NCBI GenBank assembly: GCA_965205265.1
Contig: CBDBGH010000003.1
Span: forward strand, 3,776,001 to 3,840,000
DNA from: Alphaproteobacteria bacterium
GTDB lineage: Bacteria > Pseudomonadota > Alphaproteobacteria > Bin95
Reading direction: 5' to 3'
DNA length: 64,000 nt
In this document: positions 29,736 through 35,772 of the stretch, in pieces
How positions within the stretch are numbered: the stretch's first letter is position 1
How the letters are laid out: each line of letters begins with the position of its first letter
Program-made: the position numbers and the translations under genes
The notes under the pieces: generated by a model
Databases searched by the model: none
Told to the model about the DNA's origin: nothing
The model's input: only the letters and a program-made list of their open reading frames with translations

Positions 29736-31465
29736 CCGACCGGCGCAACGACCCGACGCGGCGGATGAATGGCGGCCGCGCCGTCGCCGAAATGTTGAAC
29801 GCCTATGGCGGCGCGCCGATCTGGGGCATGGCGGGCTTCCAGCTCCTGCCCTTCTATGACGGCGTGCGCGCGCTCGGCATGACCCACACGCTCATAAACG
29901 ACGAGCGCTGCGGGGCCTTCGCCGCCGACGCCTGGGCGCGCGTCACCGGGCGGCCGGGCGTGGTCGATGCGACGCTCGGCCCCGGCGCCACCAACCTGCT
30001 GACCGCGCTCGTGGAATCGCTGAATGCGGGCGTGCCGATGATCGCCGTGGTGGGCGACGCCAACCGGGCGCATGCCTGGAAGAACATGACCCAGGAGACC
30101 CGCCAGATCGAGATGCTGGCGCCGGCGGTGAAGGAGGTGATCCGCGTCGAGGTGGGCGAGCGCATCCCCGAGCATGTGCGCCGCGCCTTCGCGGTCGCAA
30201 CGAGCGGCCGTCCCGGCCCCGTCATCCTCGATGTGCCGGAGGACATCGCGCATGGCGAGTTCGAGTTCAGCGAGGAAGCGCTTTACGTGGAGGAGGAATG
30301 CAAGCGCATCCCCTCGCTGCGCTGCCGGCCCGACGCGGCGGCGGTGGAGCGCGCGGCCGCCCTCCTCGACCGGGCCGAACGGCCGCTGCTGCTGGCGGGC
30401 GGCGGCATCCACCTGTCCGAAGCCTGGGAGGCGCTCCGCCGCTTCGCCGAGACGCATGGCGTGCCGGTTGCGCACACCATGTCCGGCAAGGGCGCGCTCG
30501 CCTGCACCCACCCGCTGTCAATGGGCCTGTTCGGGCGCTACGACCGCATCGCCAACGGGCTGATCGAGGAGGCGGACGCGCTCGTCGCGGTCGGCTGCAA
30601 GCTCGGCGAGATCGCAACGAAACGCTACACGCTGCCGCCCGCGCATATCCCGCTCATCCACCTGGAGATCGAGGCGGGCGAGATCGGGCGGGCGGTGCGC
30701 GCGGAAGTCGGGCTCTGGGGCGATGCCCGGGCCGGGCTCGACGACCTGGCGGCCGCCTGCGACGCGCGCATCGACCGCAGCGCCTGGACCGACGAGGCCG
30801 CCCGCCGCCATGCCGCCTGGCGCGAGGAGGCCCGCGCCCGCTACGAGAGCGCCGAGAGGCCGGTCAACATGGCCCGGCTGGTCCACGCGATCCGCAGCGC
30901 GCTGCCCGATGACGGCATTCTGGTGGCCGACGGCGGCTTCGCCGGCCACTGGACGGGCCTGCTCTACGACACGCGGCAGGCGGGGCGCACCTATATCGCC
31001 GACCGGGGCTTCGCCTCCATCGGCTACGGCCTGCCGGGCGGCATGGGCGCGGCGCTGGCCGCCGGCGGCCGCCCTGTGGTGGCGCTCTCCGGCGACGGCG
31101 GCTTCAACATGACGCTCGGCGAGATCGAGACCGCGCGGCGCCTCGGCCTCGGCCTCACGGTCGCTGTGGTGAACAACGCCGCCTCCGGCTATGTGAAGGC
31201 GCTCCAGCACGCCATGTACGGGGGCCGCTACCAGTCCTCGGACCTCTCGGAGACCGACTATGCGGCCGCCGCCCGCGCGCTCGGCTGCCACGGCGTGCGC
31301 GTCGAGGACCCGGCCGACCTCGACGCCGCCTTCGCCGAGGCGATAGCCGAGCGGGACCGCCCGAGCGTCGTCGATGTCGTCGTCACCCGCGACCCCGCGC
31401 AAATGCTCCCCGGCATGGACAACCGCACGGCCCCGAAGATCGAGCGGGGGGACAGGATTGCGTGA
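29732..31465 (+). CDS. thiamine-pyrophosphate-binding enzyme (acetolactate synthase-like)
   Basis: GPGATN, SGRPGPV, GDGGF..NN TPP motif. Confidence 0.92.
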   Translation: MTDRRNDPTRRMNGGRAVAEMLNAYGGAPIWGMAGFQLLPFYDGVRALGMTHTLINDERCGAFAADAWARVTGRPGVVDATLGPGATNLLTALVESLNAGVPMIAVVGDANRAHAWKNMTQETRQIEMLAPAVKEVIRVEVGERIPEHVRRAFAVATSGRPGPVILDVPEDIAHGEFEFSEEALYVEEECKRIPSLRCRPDAAAVERAAALLDRAERPLLLAGGGIHLSEAWEALRRFAETHGVPVAHTMSGKGALACTHPLSMGLFGRYDRIANGLIEEADALVAVGCKLGEIATKRYTLPPAHIPLIHLEIEAGEIGRAVRAEVGLWGDARAGLDDLAAACDARIDRSAWTDEAARRHAAWREEARARYESAERPVNMARLVHAIRSALPDDGILVADGGFAGHWTGLLYDTRQAGRTYIADRGFASIGYGLPGGMGAALAAGGRPVVALSGDGGFNMTLGEIETARRLGLGLTVAVVNNAASGYVKALQHAMYGGRYQSSDLSETDYAAAARALGCHGVRVEDPADLDAAFAEAIAERDRPSVVDVVVTRDPAQMLPGMDNRTAPKIERGDRIA

Positions 31466-31738
31466 CGGTGACGCCCAACCAACCGATATCCCGCGATCGT
31501 GCATTGTTGTTCCGCATCACGCATGTTCGGAACCTTCCGTGGCTGCTGCGCAATGGCCTTTATGCAGCCTCCGGCCTCCGAGACCCTGATTTCGTGTCAA
31601 TCGGAAATCCGGATCTCATTGAGAAACGTGAACGACGAGTGGTCCCCACTCCGCCCGGTGGCACCCTCGATGACTACGTGCCGTTTTATTTCACCCCCTA
31701 TTCGCCGATGCAGCTAAACATCCTTTCTGGCCGAGGCG
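31462..31738 (+). pseudogene. darT: darT 5' part (DNA ADP-ribosyltransferase toxin), interrupted
   Basis: FRITHVRNLPWLLRNGL, DYVPFYFTPYSPM motifs; homology ends at LSGRG. Confidence 0.88.
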
Positions 31739-31739
31739 A

Positions 31740-32222
31740 TCGTGCATTCATTCTGCCCATGTCGGGCAGGACTGCGTCATCCATTACCCGTGGCATGCCC
31801 ATTTCGGCCGCCGTGTCCGCCTTGAAGTTATCGAACAGCGTGCCGACGGCCTCATGGCCTCTGTCGAGGTAGAGCCCGGGCTGGTCATCAAGATTCCCGC
31901 CTGGTCGCTCGATCCTGCGTCATGCGCCGGCATGGAGATCGGCGCGCCGCGTGTATCCCTGGCCGCTCTTGCCGCGCTTCACGAGGTTCTCGTCGGCCAG
32001 GGTTTTAGACGAAGCTCCTCCGCTGACGGGACGGTTAGTGAGGAGGAGCTCAATGAAGTCTTTGGCTGTACCGGCGAGGCCGCCGGGCGAGTTCCGACAG
32101 CTCAGCATGCTGTTGGACACACCGGCGCTGCGTGGCCTGAACCGGGAGGAACGCGACGCGGTCGTGGGCGCGCTGGCCGGGCTGCTTCTGGAAGCGGCGG
32201 ATTTCGCGGTGAAGGAGGATGA
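31740..32222 (+). CDS. accessory ORF of the recombinase element, open to the left end and lacking its own 5' start
   Basis: Frame SCIHSAHVGQDCVIHYPWHAHFGRRV...IPAWSLDPASC; RBS and ATG lie at the far right end of the element (34312). Confidence 0.6.
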   Translation, partial: SCIHSAHVGQDCVIHYPWHAHFGRRVRLEVIEQRADGLMASVEVEPGLVIKIPAWSLDPASCAGMEIGAPRVSLAALAALHEVLVGQGFRRSSSADGTVSEEELNEVFGCTGEAAGRVPTAQHAVGHTGAAWPEPGGTRRGRGRAGRAASGSGGFRGEGG

Positions 32223-32238
32223 CGATGAGCACCTCTGA
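32053..32238 (+). CDS. small protein of the recombinase element (61 aa)
   Basis: AGGAGGAG RBS; MKSLAVPARPPGEFRQLSMLLD...LAGLLLEAA; overlaps the recombinase start. Confidence 0.7.
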   Translation: MKSLAVPARPPGEFRQLSMLLDTPALRGLNREERDAVVGALAGLLLEAADFAVKEDDDEHL

Positions 32239-34297
32239 TGCGTTGCCGCGATCGGTGTTGACGCGCAAGGCCGTGGTTTATGTCCGTCAGTCCACGCCCC
32301 AGCAGATGCGGAACAATCTCGAGAGCCAGCGCCGCCAATACGATCTCGTCAACGTGGCGCGCGGGCACGGTTTCGCCCGGGTTGAGGTCATCGACGAAGA
32401 TCTGGGCCTGTCGGCGAGTGGCGCCATCGCACGGCCGGGTTTCGAGCGTCTCGTCGCCTGGCTGTGTGCCGGGGACGTCGGAGCGGTACTTTGCTTCGAG
32501 GCGTCTCGCATCTCCCGCAACGGCCGGGACTGGCACCATCTGCTCGAGCTCTGCGGTCTCGTGGAGGCCCGCGTCATCGACCTGGATGGCATCTATGATC
32601 CTCGCCACCCAAACGACCGCTTGCTGCTCGGACTTAAGGGCCAGATCAGTGAGTTCGAACTCGGCGTTCTCCGCGCACGGATGCTCGACGCCGCCCGATC
32701 CAAGGCAGCGCGCGGCGAGCTTCGCATCAGCGTCCCGATCGGTTACGTGTGGCATCCCCAAGGCGGGCTGGGGCTGGATCCTGACATTCGGGTTCAGGAA
32801 GCGATCCGTCAGATATTCGCCCGATTTCGCGAGCTGGGCAGCGCGCGGCAGGTCCTGTTGACGCTGGTCGAGCAGCAGCATTGCTTCCCGCGCCCGTCAG
32901 ATGGCAGGACAACGGTTAGCTTCGACTGGACGCCGATCCGCTATCGCAATGTGATTTCGGTATTGAAGAACCCCTTCTACGCTGGTGTCTATGCCTACGG
33001 CAAAAGCGAACAACGAACCGAGATCGTCGACGGGCGGGTGCACAAAAGCTATGGCCACCGGAGACCGATGGCGGAATGGGAGGTCATGCTGAAGGACCAT
33101 CACGAGGGCTACATCGATTGGGCGGAGTTCGAGCGCAACCAGGCGCAACTCGCCGCCAACGCCTTCGGCTGGTCCGGCGGCGCGAAGTCCGGGCGCGGCG
33201 GACGGGCGCTGCTGAGCGGACTTCTCAGCTGTGGGCGCTGCGGCCGCTCAATGTCAGTCGCCTATGCTGGGCAATCACCGGGCAATCCTGTTTATTTCTG
33301 CAACCGGCAACACCTCCAGCTCGGGCTCGATCGCTGTCTGAGGTTCGGCGGCGCGCGTGTGGATGCCGCCATTGCCGATGAGATCATCGGGGTCGTCGAG
33401 CCCTTGGCCGTGGAAGCCTCCTTGAAGGCCGAGCGGGTGAAGGTGGAGGGCCTGAGCGAACAACAGCGAGTGGCCGAGCTGGACCTGCAGCAAGCCCGCT
33501 ACGAAGCATCACTCGCCGAGCGGCGCTATGCCGCCTGCGATCCGGACAACCGGTTGATTGCCGCCGAGCTGGAGAAGAGTTGGGAGGCGGCGCTTCGCCG
33601 CGTCCAGGTGTGCGAAGCGCGGCTGGAGGCAATGCGGTCGCCGTCACCGCAGCCCTCGGGACCGGATCTGGCCGGGCTTGCCGATGACCTGAAGGCAGCC
33701 TGGAACGCGCCGGGGGTGAGCATGCGTGCCCGCCAGCGGCTCGTACGCACCCTGATCGCCGGCATCGTCGCCGATGTCGACGAGGAAGCGCGCGAAGTCC
33801 TGCTGACGATCCACTGGGTCGGTGGCCGCCATTCCCGATTGCGGGTTCGAAAGCCCAGAACCGGTGAACATGGCTGCCGAACGCCCGAGGAAGCGCTGGC
33901 GGTGATACGCAGCATGGCCGGGCGGTGGTCGGACGAACATATCGCTGCGTCTCTCAACCGGATGGGCATGCGGACCGGCCAGCACAAGAGCTGGACCGGC
34001 AAGCGGGTCGGATCGATCCGTCGCGTGAACGGGATCGACGGCTATCTCTCAGCGGACAAGCAGGGCGATTGGTACACCATGACCGAGGCGGCGAACGAGT
34101 TGGGCACCACCAGCCATACGCTCAGGCGCCTCATCGAGGATGGAACGCTACCCGCCACGCAGCTCGTTCCCCGAGCGCCTTGGCAGATCAGAGCCGCGGA
34201 CCTCCATTCAGAGAGCGTTGCTCACGCCCTGGCACAAAGGAAAGGCCCGCGTCGCACTTCATGCCGGGATCAGATGTCAATGTTTTCAGATAGTTGA
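32225..34297 (+). CDS. large serine recombinase with zinc ribbon, coiled coil and C-terminal HTH
   Basis: VYVRQST catalytic Ser motif, DEDLGLS, SRISRN, LSCGRCG. Confidence 0.95.
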   Translation: MSTSDALPRSVLTRKAVVYVRQSTPQQMRNNLESQRRQYDLVNVARGHGFARVEVIDEDLGLSASGAIARPGFERLVAWLCAGDVGAVLCFEASRISRNGRDWHHLLELCGLVEARVIDLDGIYDPRHPNDRLLLGLKGQISEFELGVLRARMLDAARSKAARGELRISVPIGYVWHPQGGLGLDPDIRVQEAIRQIFARFRELGSARQVLLTLVEQQHCFPRPSDGRTTVSFDWTPIRYRNVISVLKNPFYAGVYAYGKSEQRTEIVDGRVHKSYGHRRPMAEWEVMLKDHHEGYIDWAEFERNQAQLAANAFGWSGGAKSGRGGRALLSGLLSCGRCGRSMSVAYAGQSPGNPVYFCNRQHLQLGLDRCLRFGGARVDAAIADEIIGVVEPLAVEASLKAERVKVEGLSEQQRVAELDLQQARYEASLAERRYAACDPDNRLIAAELEKSWEAALRRVQVCEARLEAMRSPSPQPSGPDLAGLADDLKAAWNAPGVSMRARQRLVRTLIAGIVADVDEEAREVLLTIHWVGGRHSRLRVRKPRTGEHGCRTPEEALAVIRSMAGRWSDEHIAASLNRMGMRTGQHKSWTGKRVGSIRRVNGIDGYLSADKQGDWYTMTEAANELGTTSHTLRRLIEDGTLPATQLVPRAPWQIRAADLHSESVAHALAQRKGPRRTSCRDQMSMFSDS

Positions 34298-34331
34298 AGA
34301 GGGGGTGCAGAATGACTCCATCGTCGCGGCG

Positions 34332-34705
34332 CACAGCAGAGAAGGCCCGGCGAAATCATATTCGTTGTTACATCGATCACCCGTCTTGAGGAAGCTGGCG
34401 CCCGATGCCTCGTGACCGACTCTCATGCGTATTTTGGGGCAGCGAAATTTTCCACACCTCAGTCGGGTCTCGACTTGATCGACTGGGAACTGCTGCAACA
34501 GAGAAACTTTAAGCGTGATCCGAACGATCCAGATAAGATCGGGCGCTATCAGGCGGAGGCGCTAGTTCACATGCACGTGCCTATGAACGCTCTGCTTGGG
34601 TTGGCGACAAAGACGGCCTCAGATGCACGAAAAATAGAATTGCTCGTCGAAGACGCAGGTGTTAAACTTACAGTAGCGGAGCGGCCGAAATGGTATTTCC
34701 GGTGA
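34332..34705 (+). pseudogene. darT: darT 3' part
   Basis: Frame QQRRPGEIIFVVTS...TDSHAY...IDWELL...RYQAEALV (catalytic Glu motif) ...WYF; GTGA overlap with darG. Confidence 0.88.
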
Positions 34706-35772
34706 TCGAAACCGGGACGGGGAATCTGCTTGACGCCGAAGCGGAGGCGCTGGTCAACACCGTCAACTGCGTCGGTGTGATGGGCAAGGGTGTTGCGCTG
34801 ATGTTCCGCGAGGCGTTCCCGGAGAACTACCGTTCCTACCGGGCCGCTTGCAATGCCGGCGAACTCCGCCCCGGTAGTCTGTTCGTCCATCGTACAAACG
34901 ATCTGGTCGGTCCGCGGTTGATCGTGAACTTCGCAACCAAGGACCACTGGCGCGGCAAGTCGCGCATGGAGTGGATCGAAAGCGGTCTTGCGGAACTGGC
35001 AGCGCTAGTGCGGGCGGAAGGAATCCGTTCCGTTGCATTGCCGCCACTAGGAGCCGGCAATGGCGGGCTCGACTGGAACGAGGTGCGGCCGCGCATCGAC
35101 GAGCACCTGGGCGACCTCGAAAGCGTCCGGGTCATTGTCTTCGAGCCGACGGACGAATACCGCAATGTGAGCAAGCGCGCCGGCGTCGAAACGCTTACTC
35201 CGGCGCGCGCTGTGATGGCGGCCCTGCTGCGCCGCTACGAGGTGCTGGGCTTCGAATGCAGCCTGCTTGAAATGCAGAAGCTCGCCTGGTTTGCAGAGCG
35301 GATCGCGGCGAAGCTGGGATTACCCGACCGACTGGGGTTGCAATTCGAAGCCGAACGCTACGGCCCCTATTCGCACCGGCTGACCCATCTGCTCGACGGG
35401 CTGGACGGCAGCTATCTCCATTCCGACATCCGCATCCCGGACGCCAAGCCCTTCGATGTCGTGCGGTGCCGCTACGACCGTGCCGACCGGGTAGAAGCAT
35501 TTCTCAGGACGGCCGAGGCGAACGGCTACGGTGCGGTGGTGAAGAAGACCGACGAATTGATAGATGGTTTTCAGTCACCCTTCGGCATGGAACTGCTGGC
35601 GACGGTCGATTGGCTCCTGCACCGGGAAGGGTGCGCTCCGGAGGTTCCTGCAATCGCGGACGCCGTTGCGGCATGGCCGGCCGGACCCAAATGGGGACGG
35701 CGCAAGCGCAGAATCTTCGACGACCGCGTATTGGGTATCGCCCTTGAGCGATTGCAGTCCGCCGGTATGTAA
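34702..35772 (+). CDS. darG: DarG macrodomain antitoxin
   Basis: ALVNTVNCVGVMGKGVA, NFATKDHWR, LGAGNGGL; C-terminal YGPYS and ELLATVDW. Confidence 0.92.
   Translation: MIETGTGNLLDAEAEALVNTVNCVGVMGKGVALMFREAFPENYRSYRAACNAGELRPGSLFVHRTNDLVGPRLIVNFATKDHWRGKSRMEWIESGLAELAALVRAEGIRSVALPPLGAGNGGLDWNEVRPRIDEHLGDLESVRVIVFEPTDEYRNVSKRAGVETLTPARAVMAALLRRYEVLGFECSLLEMQKLAWFAERIAAKLGLPDRLGLQFEAERYGPYSHRLTHLLDGLDGSYLHSDIRIPDAKPFDVVRCRYDRADRVEAFLRTAEANGYGAVVKKTDELIDGFQSPFGMELLATVDWLLHREGCAPEVPAIADAVAAWPAGPKWGRRKRRIFDDRVLGIALERLQSAGM

Follow-up and report, generated by a model that had tools for sequence, protein, structure and literature searches.

How can a gene be complete when its translation start lies at one end of a mobile element and its body at the other? 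This question is raised by a 64,000-nt stretch of DNA (hereafter the window) from an alphaproteobacterium, contig CBDBGH010000003.1 of assembly GCA_965205265.1; all coordinates given here are positions in the window. Positions 31738-34327 are a 2590-bp insertion sequence (IS)-like element with defined ends. The element contains three overlapping open reading frames (ORFs) on the + strand, i.e., ORF A, ORF B and the gene for a large serine recombinase (LSR). The LSR ORF (32219-34297) is intact in the integrated state, and it is ORF A that is split. We conclude that this is probably an LSR element that moves via a circle and that its ORF A, which is split by the attachment (att) site, is whole and translated on the circle only.

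The Element and Its Ends

The 5.7-Mb genome contains five copies of the 2590-bp element, which are 100% identical and have different flanks. Alignment of these flanks showed that the constant part is bounded by GC at 31736-31737 and by GC at 34326-34327. In four public runs, the breaks between Logan unitigs are at 31735 and 34327, and the element forms a single unitig whose loose ends lead to IS66-type flanks. In the window, the element cuts darT, which encodes the single-stranded DNA ADP-ribosyltransferase toxin of a DarT-DarG pair. The 5' part of darT (31462-31737, + strand; Pfam DarT PF14487, E 3e-23) covers profile positions 1-78 and stops at 31737, while the 3' part (34328-34705, + strand; E 1.3e-22) restarts at 34328 with profile positions 83-201. 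An intact darT ortholog in a related genome (G011) is 90% identical and spans the insertion point, and its length equals the left flank plus one GC plus the right flank. Because GC is counted only once in the intact gene, the insertion is conservative with a 2-bp overlap, as is made by serine recombinases. The left GC (31736-31737, + strand) is the crossover dinucleotide at the core of attL and the right GC (34326-34327, + strand) that at the core of attR, in agreement with the related elements described below. With a length of 2590 bp, five identical copies and genes for mobility only (A, B and LSR), the element is an IS in the broad sense; it belongs to none of the named IS families tested.

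A Gene Split between the Two Ends

The LSR gene stops with TGA at 34295-34297. After 1 nt follows the Shine-Dalgarno (SD)-like motif GAGGGGG (34299-34305, + strand) and, 6 nt further downstream, an ATG (34312-34314) that is 14 nt past the LSR stop codon. This ATG and the next 11 nt (34312-34325, + strand) would provide the first four and two-thirds codons of ORF A. The ATG is inside the right arm, GCAGAATGA (34307-34315), of a 9-nt inverted repeat, and the SD-like motif lies outside that arm. The body of ORF A is found at the left end (31740-32222, + strand). It consists of 160 codons plus TGA and has no start codon of its own: upstream in its frame there is a TAA at 31716-31718, and from there on no ATG, GTG or TTG is found before 31854. 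Its assignment as a gene is based on homologs that match from residue 1-3, coding periodicity and a structure model.

The left arm of the att site (31738-31769, + strand) comprises an 11-nt spacer, the repeat arm TCATTCTGC (31748-31756) and the palindrome CTGCCC-ATGTC-GGGCAG (31753-31769), which were recognized by conservation and a predicted hairpin. The same stretch encodes the conserved residues H-S-A-H-V-G-Q, and its entropy is near zero at all three codon positions among 42 non-redundant elements. Both 9-nt repeat arms (31748-31756 and 34307-34315) are 11 nt from GC, so that after joining they would be centered on the crossover like the arms of an attP; in related elements the arms match at 6-10 of 10 positions. 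In some members of the family (e.g., L053), the palindrome is longer, with a stem of 10 bp in which the arm motif GCAGAATG recurs. The palindrome inside the left end could serve as an additional site for the binding of a protein, or it could form a hairpin in the mRNA immediately downstream of the start.

When the two ends are joined, the distance from the A of the ATG to the T of the His codon CAT is 14 + 2 + 14 = 30 nt, and the in-frame relation between start and body follows from this geometry. The joined ORF has 166 codons. A preliminary description of this DNA had noted GAGGGGG and ATG just after the recombinase stop, a left ORF that ends at 32222 and has no 5' start, and an inverted repeat that flanks the junction like attP arms, all of which are present as described. 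Its proposal that circular joining creates an in-frame ORF also holds, but the GGCG overlap and the 167 amino acids that it gave do not. As the flanks of the five copies and the length of the intact darT reveal, GGCG is partly darT flank; the crossover is GC, and the joined ORF is 3 nt shorter.

Conservation in Related Elements

We compared 80 loci collected from one-genome-per-species contigs, together with loci from the order to which the window belongs. Fifty elements, including that of the window, had a full-length recombinase and both ends. In 49 of these 50 elements, the right end consists of ATG, 11 nt and a dinucleotide, and the left end of a dinucleotide, 11 nt and CAT; the only exception is L103, whose right end is disrupted. 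Each of the 40 distinct right ends has an SD-like motif at a distance of 4-10 nt before the ATG. The LSR stop codon is 14 nt before the ATG in 38/50 elements and overlaps it as ATGA in 10/50. At the other side of the gene, the stop codon of ORF A overlaps the LSR start codon in 58 of 61 distinct contexts (ATGA in 54 and GTGA in 4).

The two ends share their boundary dinucleotide in 38 of the 46 elements that could be tested and in 34 of the 39 of the non-redundant set. It differs in eight elements, two of them reciprocally within one genome, as is expected after recombination between copies; it was unreadable in three elements, and L103 was not counted. That concordant dinucleotides other than GC also occur (i.e., TT, AG, AC, and CA) identifies the boundary dinucleotide as the crossover, and it is precisely there that several short contigs end. 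The palindromic GC is the crossover of 27 of the 42 non-redundant elements. Serine integrases usually take their polarity from a non-palindromic center; with a GC center, the orientation of these elements should therefore be set in some other way.

A distant subfamily, represented by L027 (G005:C65) and L028 (G016:C1), has recombinases that are 47% identical and the same split-gene geometry. Its ends show GAGGTG, a 6-nt spacer and then GTG or ATG, with concordant dinucleotides GG and GA. In the member with GTG the inverted repeat is broken and a start codon is retained. A profile built from 46 ORF A sequences matched 3290 representatives of clusters at 50% identity at E ≤ 0.001, and 1348 at 1e-10. 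The family also includes 184 plasmid records, which are mostly rhizobial. Thus, the conservation of frame, ribosome-binding site and ATG in homologs, on which the preliminary description had staked its reading, was found down to about 47% recombinase identity, and conservation throughout a large family supports its view of ORF A as a gene that spans the att site.

The Joined Junction in a Natural Contig

A scan of metagenome contigs for junction-shaped patterns returned at least 118 stretches. Among the matches listed, contig L133 contains the one true junction, and the other 117 are chance matches without homology to ORF A or the LSR. In L133 the following features are continuous: the last 41 codons of a recombinase gene, TGA, CGAAGGGG, a spacer, ATG, 11 nt, GC, 11 nt, CAT, an open ORF A, ORF B and the start of a recombinase gene. 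An IS5-like transposase gene is located upstream of this junction. No circle joint was found in the contigs of four public runs (X1, X3, X4, and X5), which are uninformative on circles as contigs drop rare forms. None of the five copies in the genome of the window is in tandem.

Probable Translation of ORF A and Alternative Explanations

In codons 17-36 of ORF A (nt 48-108 after the ATG), entropy at the three codon positions is 0.73, 0.64 and 1.41, respectively, which is variation of the coding type, and residues 11-60 are modeled with a predicted local distance difference test score (pLDDT) of about 94. Met31854 is replaced by I, V or L in homologs, and the first in-frame internal starts of the elements are spread from codon 1 to codon 56. 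Codon-position variation thus shows that the reading frame of A encodes protein ahead of every internal start that is conserved. The protein might instead start internally, at Met31854 or at the Met of a conserved W-M-L-D motif, with the conservation further upstream acting at the DNA level only. It is true that the ATG at 31854 is the first start in the integrated copy of the window and that conservation in the 21 nt directly behind the His codon extends to every codon position, which indicates a constraint on DNA or RNA. A start at codon 39 or later, however, would delete strands of the well-modeled part, and the variable Met31854, the scattered first starts and the third-position variation of codons 17-36 all speak against such a start, which is the least probable of the explanations considered here and hardly credible to us. 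The finding that would have undone the preliminary description, i.e., a start at 31854 with nothing conserved upstream, is contradicted by a Met that varies and by upstream residues that are conserved as protein and belong to a folded model.

Several other observations weigh against translation on the circle only. The ATG belongs to the 9-nt inverted repeat, where its counterpart in the opposite arm is the complementary His codon, so its conservation could stem from recombinase binding alone, and with equal spacing of the arms the frame follows automatically. Stops across the junction do not discriminate between frames (0/42 in frame 0 and only 2/42 in frame 2, which is also nearly free of stops), and the 24 nt from ATG to His show no clear codon periodicity (0.84, 1.18, and 1.22). 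Among 64 distinct integrated left flanks, 33 provide some in-frame ATG, GTG or TTG; 20 supply an in-frame ATG, which in nine of them is at a fixed place from the IS66 target, ten codons before His, so that A could be produced even from a number of copies that are integrated. TTG, GTG or ATG is present within the left arm of a few elements. In seven elements, the first full codon of the left arm is a start codon. In 47/61 contexts (by a lax definition), the LSR start comes with an SD-like motif of its own, and ORF B likewise has a separate start, so that the LSR could be synthesized independently of A. A scan with poor coverage of alphaproteobacterial promoters detected no sigma-70-like promoter in the integrated element (0 found vs. 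0.5 expected); a sigma-70 promoter in the right end was considered as well, and none was found. In one alternative, which is favored by the position of the ATG in the arm, the symmetric spacing, the starts in flanks and left arms and the near absence of stops in frame 2, the ATG would arise, like the purine-rich stretch and the frame, as a by-product of an att site that the recombinase has to bind, and A would be translated in the integrated state from a start in the flank or left arm or from a non-canonical start. We consider this improbable. Between the last stop and the His codon, 31 of the 64 flanks have no in-frame ATG, GTG or TTG, and an SD-like motif accompanies an ATG in only 2/64 and any start in only 4/64. 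In contrast, the SD-like motif of the right end is present in 40/40 cases and lies outside the repeat, the GTG-bearing member of the distant subfamily gives up the repeat yet keeps a start, the LSR stop is held 14 nt upstream of the ATG or overlaps it, and the start positions chosen by gene callers scatter widely. It could also be argued that A is completed at head-to-tail tandem junctions rather than on free circles and marks the formation of multimers instead of excision. L133, the only DNA-level junction among the matches listed, may be either a circle with an insertion or a tandem copy: it is a linear contig in which the junction lies beside an IS5-like transposase gene and is preceded by only 41 codons of the upstream recombinase gene, and the four runs, for which contigs only were available, yielded no circle joint. 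LSR elements, however, are known to move through circles, the five genome copies lack any tandem arrangement, and a tandem itself would need a circle or replication slippage to arise. This makes the tandem explanation very improbable, if not quite as remote as an internal start, and translation of ORF A on an excised circle remains our preferred explanation.

ORF A in Protein Databases

Examination of 165 database proteins revealed 92 with the motif H-[ST]-A-[HRY]. Their conserved His is found anywhere from residue 3 to residue 98, most commonly at position 11 (15 proteins), 25 (10), 22 (8), 6 (7), and 10 and 4 (6 each). The class with His at position 11 (M-T/I-F/C-G-P-G-R-S..) is derived from the flank, where the Ser-Trp codons of the IS66 motif, read in antisense, supply its ATG. 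The class with His at position 10 is the one predicted from the junction; at least four of its six proteins have residues 2-5 similar to the peptides encoded by the right ends of relatives, and these proteins come from short contigs of 660-2712 nt. The N-termini of ORF A in protein databases look like artifacts derived from the flanks. On a Sinorhizobium meliloti plasmid, whose gene table in PLSDB is incomplete, ORF B is annotated as a hypothetical protein and no coding sequence is annotated over ORF A, as would be expected if gene callers need a start codon. The same plasmid has an IS66 family transposase annotated at the right flank, the same geometry of the ends and a frameshifted recombinase gene. 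For annotators, this is a warning that ORFs abutting the end of an element may be completed across the att site.

Genes of the Element

The N-terminal ~90 residues of ORF A are modeled as a beta-rich domain, followed by a disordered tail. The stop codon of ORF A (TGA, 32220-32222) overlaps the LSR start as ATGA. ORF B (32053-32238, + strand) encodes 61 aa in the +1 frame within the 3' third of ORF A and was recognized by base composition and conservation. It has its own SD, GAGGAGGAG, 5 nt upstream of its ATG, and the model of its structure is a single long helix. Codon-position base composition follows frame A at ~31750-32050 and frame B at ~32080-32230. In the 180 nt before the A stop of 59 related elements, the third frame contains 199 stops in total, compared with 3 for frame B and 0 for frame A. 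Since these 59 elements were chosen for an intact A, the zero of frame A is partly by construction, and it is the contrast with the third frame that is informative; it indicates that frames A and B are both kept open. A +1 frameshift that would fuse A to B was also considered and dropped, given that the conserved ORF B has its own strong SD and ATG in 58/61 contexts and that A is open to the LSR start.

Neither ORF A nor ORF B of the window matched Pfam, NCBIfam or PHROG, and profile searches of PDB gave no significant match. Foldseek searches against PDB returned only weak Tudor/SH3/KOW-like barrels, with E > 0.1. To our knowledge, recombination directionality factors share no common fold or motif.

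The LSR (32219-34297, + strand; 692 aa) has the domain order of a large serine recombinase, with Resolvase (PF00239, E 8e-22), Recombinase (PF07508, E 4.5e-17) and Zn_ribbon_recom (PF13408, E 2.8e-7). Its C-terminus contains a helix-turn-helix (HTH) of the excisionase/MerR type at residues 618-663 (34070-34210), which is matched by HTH_17 and the NCBIfam "excise" domain. A C-terminal HTH of the excisionase type is unusual among serine integrases, and the one in the LSR may serve to recognize the asymmetric outer portions of the ends.

Insertion Sites

The DarT-DarG pair of the window occupies 31462-35772. Its toxin gene is interrupted, while the gene for its macrodomain antitoxin, darG (34690-35772, + strand; Pfam Macro PF01661, E 7e-20), is intact. 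Precise excision of the element would restore a whole darT. The insertion site in darT resembles the usual IS66 target (..TTTCTGGCCGAG-GC.. vs. ..TTTGCGGCCGAGG-GC..). The other four copies (L002-L005 on G000:C3) are inserted antisense in IS66-type transposase genes, all in one repeated sequence whose opposite strand encodes the IS66-transposase motif "..AER.LR..ALGRK(S/N)WLF..". A pattern search and BLAST of the flanks found no uninterrupted IS66-type target in this genome; the four targets of that kind are all occupied by the element. Two of these copies, L003 and L005, are arranged head to head, ~385 bp apart, around a short piece of IS66-type target (G000:C3:2326517-2332101), which is likely a rearrangement hotspot.

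Most members of the family are likewise inserted antisense at one place in IS66-family transposase genes, namely the region encoding "..NN.AER.(I/L)R..A(L/I)GRK(N/S)(W/Y)LF.." (flanks of L029-L108), and the two members of the distant subfamily are inserted in the part of IS21-type istB that encodes the Walker A box (GPxGxGKS/T). The element has the appearance of a parasite that is specialized on another IS. In public runs X4 and X3, contigs exit the element at 32066 into unrelated AT-richer sequence, and a branch occurs near 32918-32948; these exits and branches suggest copies of the element with a further insertion or a variant.

Proposed Mechanism and Implications

We propose that the element moves by conservative site-specific recombination, in which the LSR would cut at the 2-bp crossover (here GC), and that the excised circle would carry an attP-like site built from both ends. 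In the integrated state, the body of A would be without initiation signals, and the right-end ATG would read into host DNA. In the joined state, be it a circle or a head-to-tail junction, the SD, the ATG and the first codons would rejoin the body, and gene A would be whole. Ribosomes that finish the LSR would stop 14 nt before the ATG of A, or on an overlapping ATGA in one subfamily, and ribosomes that finish A would stop on the ATGA that starts the LSR. With coupling both from LSR to A and from A to LSR, the circle would form a closed series of coupled cistrons. We infer that A, translated from the right-end ATG, is a protein specific to the circular state. Such placement of start and body at opposite ends would be a physical readout of the element's own topology that needs no regulator.

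Serine integrases integrate unaided, and excision needs a separate factor. The element bears on the question of how a minimal element that both integrates and excises sets the direction of each in turn, and a point mutation outside the recombinase gene would suffice to probe this question. If the architecture described above is accepted, it is possible, though somewhat short of an even chance, that A favors re-integration, either by raising the amount of LSR made on the circle or by counteracting a factor for excision. ORF B, which would be made in both states, is a candidate excision factor. A more comprehensive reading combines these suggestions: A would be a circle-only sensor of the excised state that flips the LSR from excision to integration, B would be the excision factor, A, LSR and again A would form an endless chain of coupled cistrons, and the family would be a hyperparasite that knocks out other ISs by homing into motifs of their transposition genes (the antisense of "LGRK(N/S)W" in IS66 TnpC and the Walker A box of IS21 IstB). 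As a whole, this reading is tentative and rather doubtful. In addition, the family offers compact LSRs with long natural target motifs.

Comparison with Known Systems

The closest parallel among LSR elements is provided by Tn4451/Tn4453 of Clostridium with TnpX, which are also excised as circles and in which joining of the ends also switches expression on. In the circle of Tn4451, the joined ends reportedly form a promoter for TnpX. The joint thus makes a promoter there, whereas here it would unite a translation start with the body of a separate gene. Furthermore, the element described here is 2.6 kb long and carries no cargo, and its crossover is GC, in contrast to GA for TnpX. Circles of IS911, IS2, IS30 and IS110/IS1111 have a junction promoter, formed by joining of -35 and -10, that boosts transposition functions. 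These are likewise small ISs whose circles gain expression, but their transposases are of the DDE or DEDD type, and joining of their ends does not assemble a coding sequence.

A possible relative is DUF5372 (PF17342), a small protein whose gene immediately precedes that of a recombinase and has a stop codon that overlaps the next start, as at locus L239 (G214:C22). A language-model search placed ORF A next to DUF5372 (score 0.93), with 30/30 matches in that family. With the PF17342 hidden Markov model, 4/46 relatives of ORF A matched (best E 9e-5), and ORF A of the window did not match at E ≤ 1; PF17342 had no match in the genome of the window and was found in 6/401 genomes of the phylum sample. 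At L239, the one DUF5372 locus that was read, the 49 in-frame codons between the previous stop and the domain of the gene (78 bits) include no Met, and the end of the gene overlaps, as ATGA, a 322-aa ORF located ahead of the large serine recombinase; this extra gene before the recombinase is a difference from our element. A second locus, L240, is degenerate. The split-start design may extend to DUF5372 elements generally. No paper on DUF5372 was found in the literature searched. Nor did that literature, which included parts of PMC13023037 and PMC10083194 and whose scope lay outside supplements and ISfinder, describe this element family or a start and body split across the att site of an LSR.

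Circle-dependent expression itself is established at the level of transcription. According to PMC13023037, Pcirc of ICEclc and P3'end of ICEKp1 are far-end signals that drive a near-end gene only after circularization. In contrast to the element of the window, these are integrative and conjugative elements with tyrosine integrases and lengths of tens of kb, their control is transcriptional, and the gene that they drive is whole whether or not the element is integrated. Cases of a gene that is split by its own att site are also known, i.e., those of the SSV-type integrases of archaeal viruses and plasmids, whose att site lies in the ORF so that the gene is whole on the circle and split on integration, as stated in PMC7253208. 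There, the split gene encodes the tyrosine integrase and is divided into two large halves; here, the att site is outside the recombinase gene, which stays intact upon integration, and it is an accessory gene that loses only its SD, ATG and first codons. What is new is therefore the combination, a bacterial serine-recombinase element with an accessory gene whose translation start is at one end and whose body is at the other.

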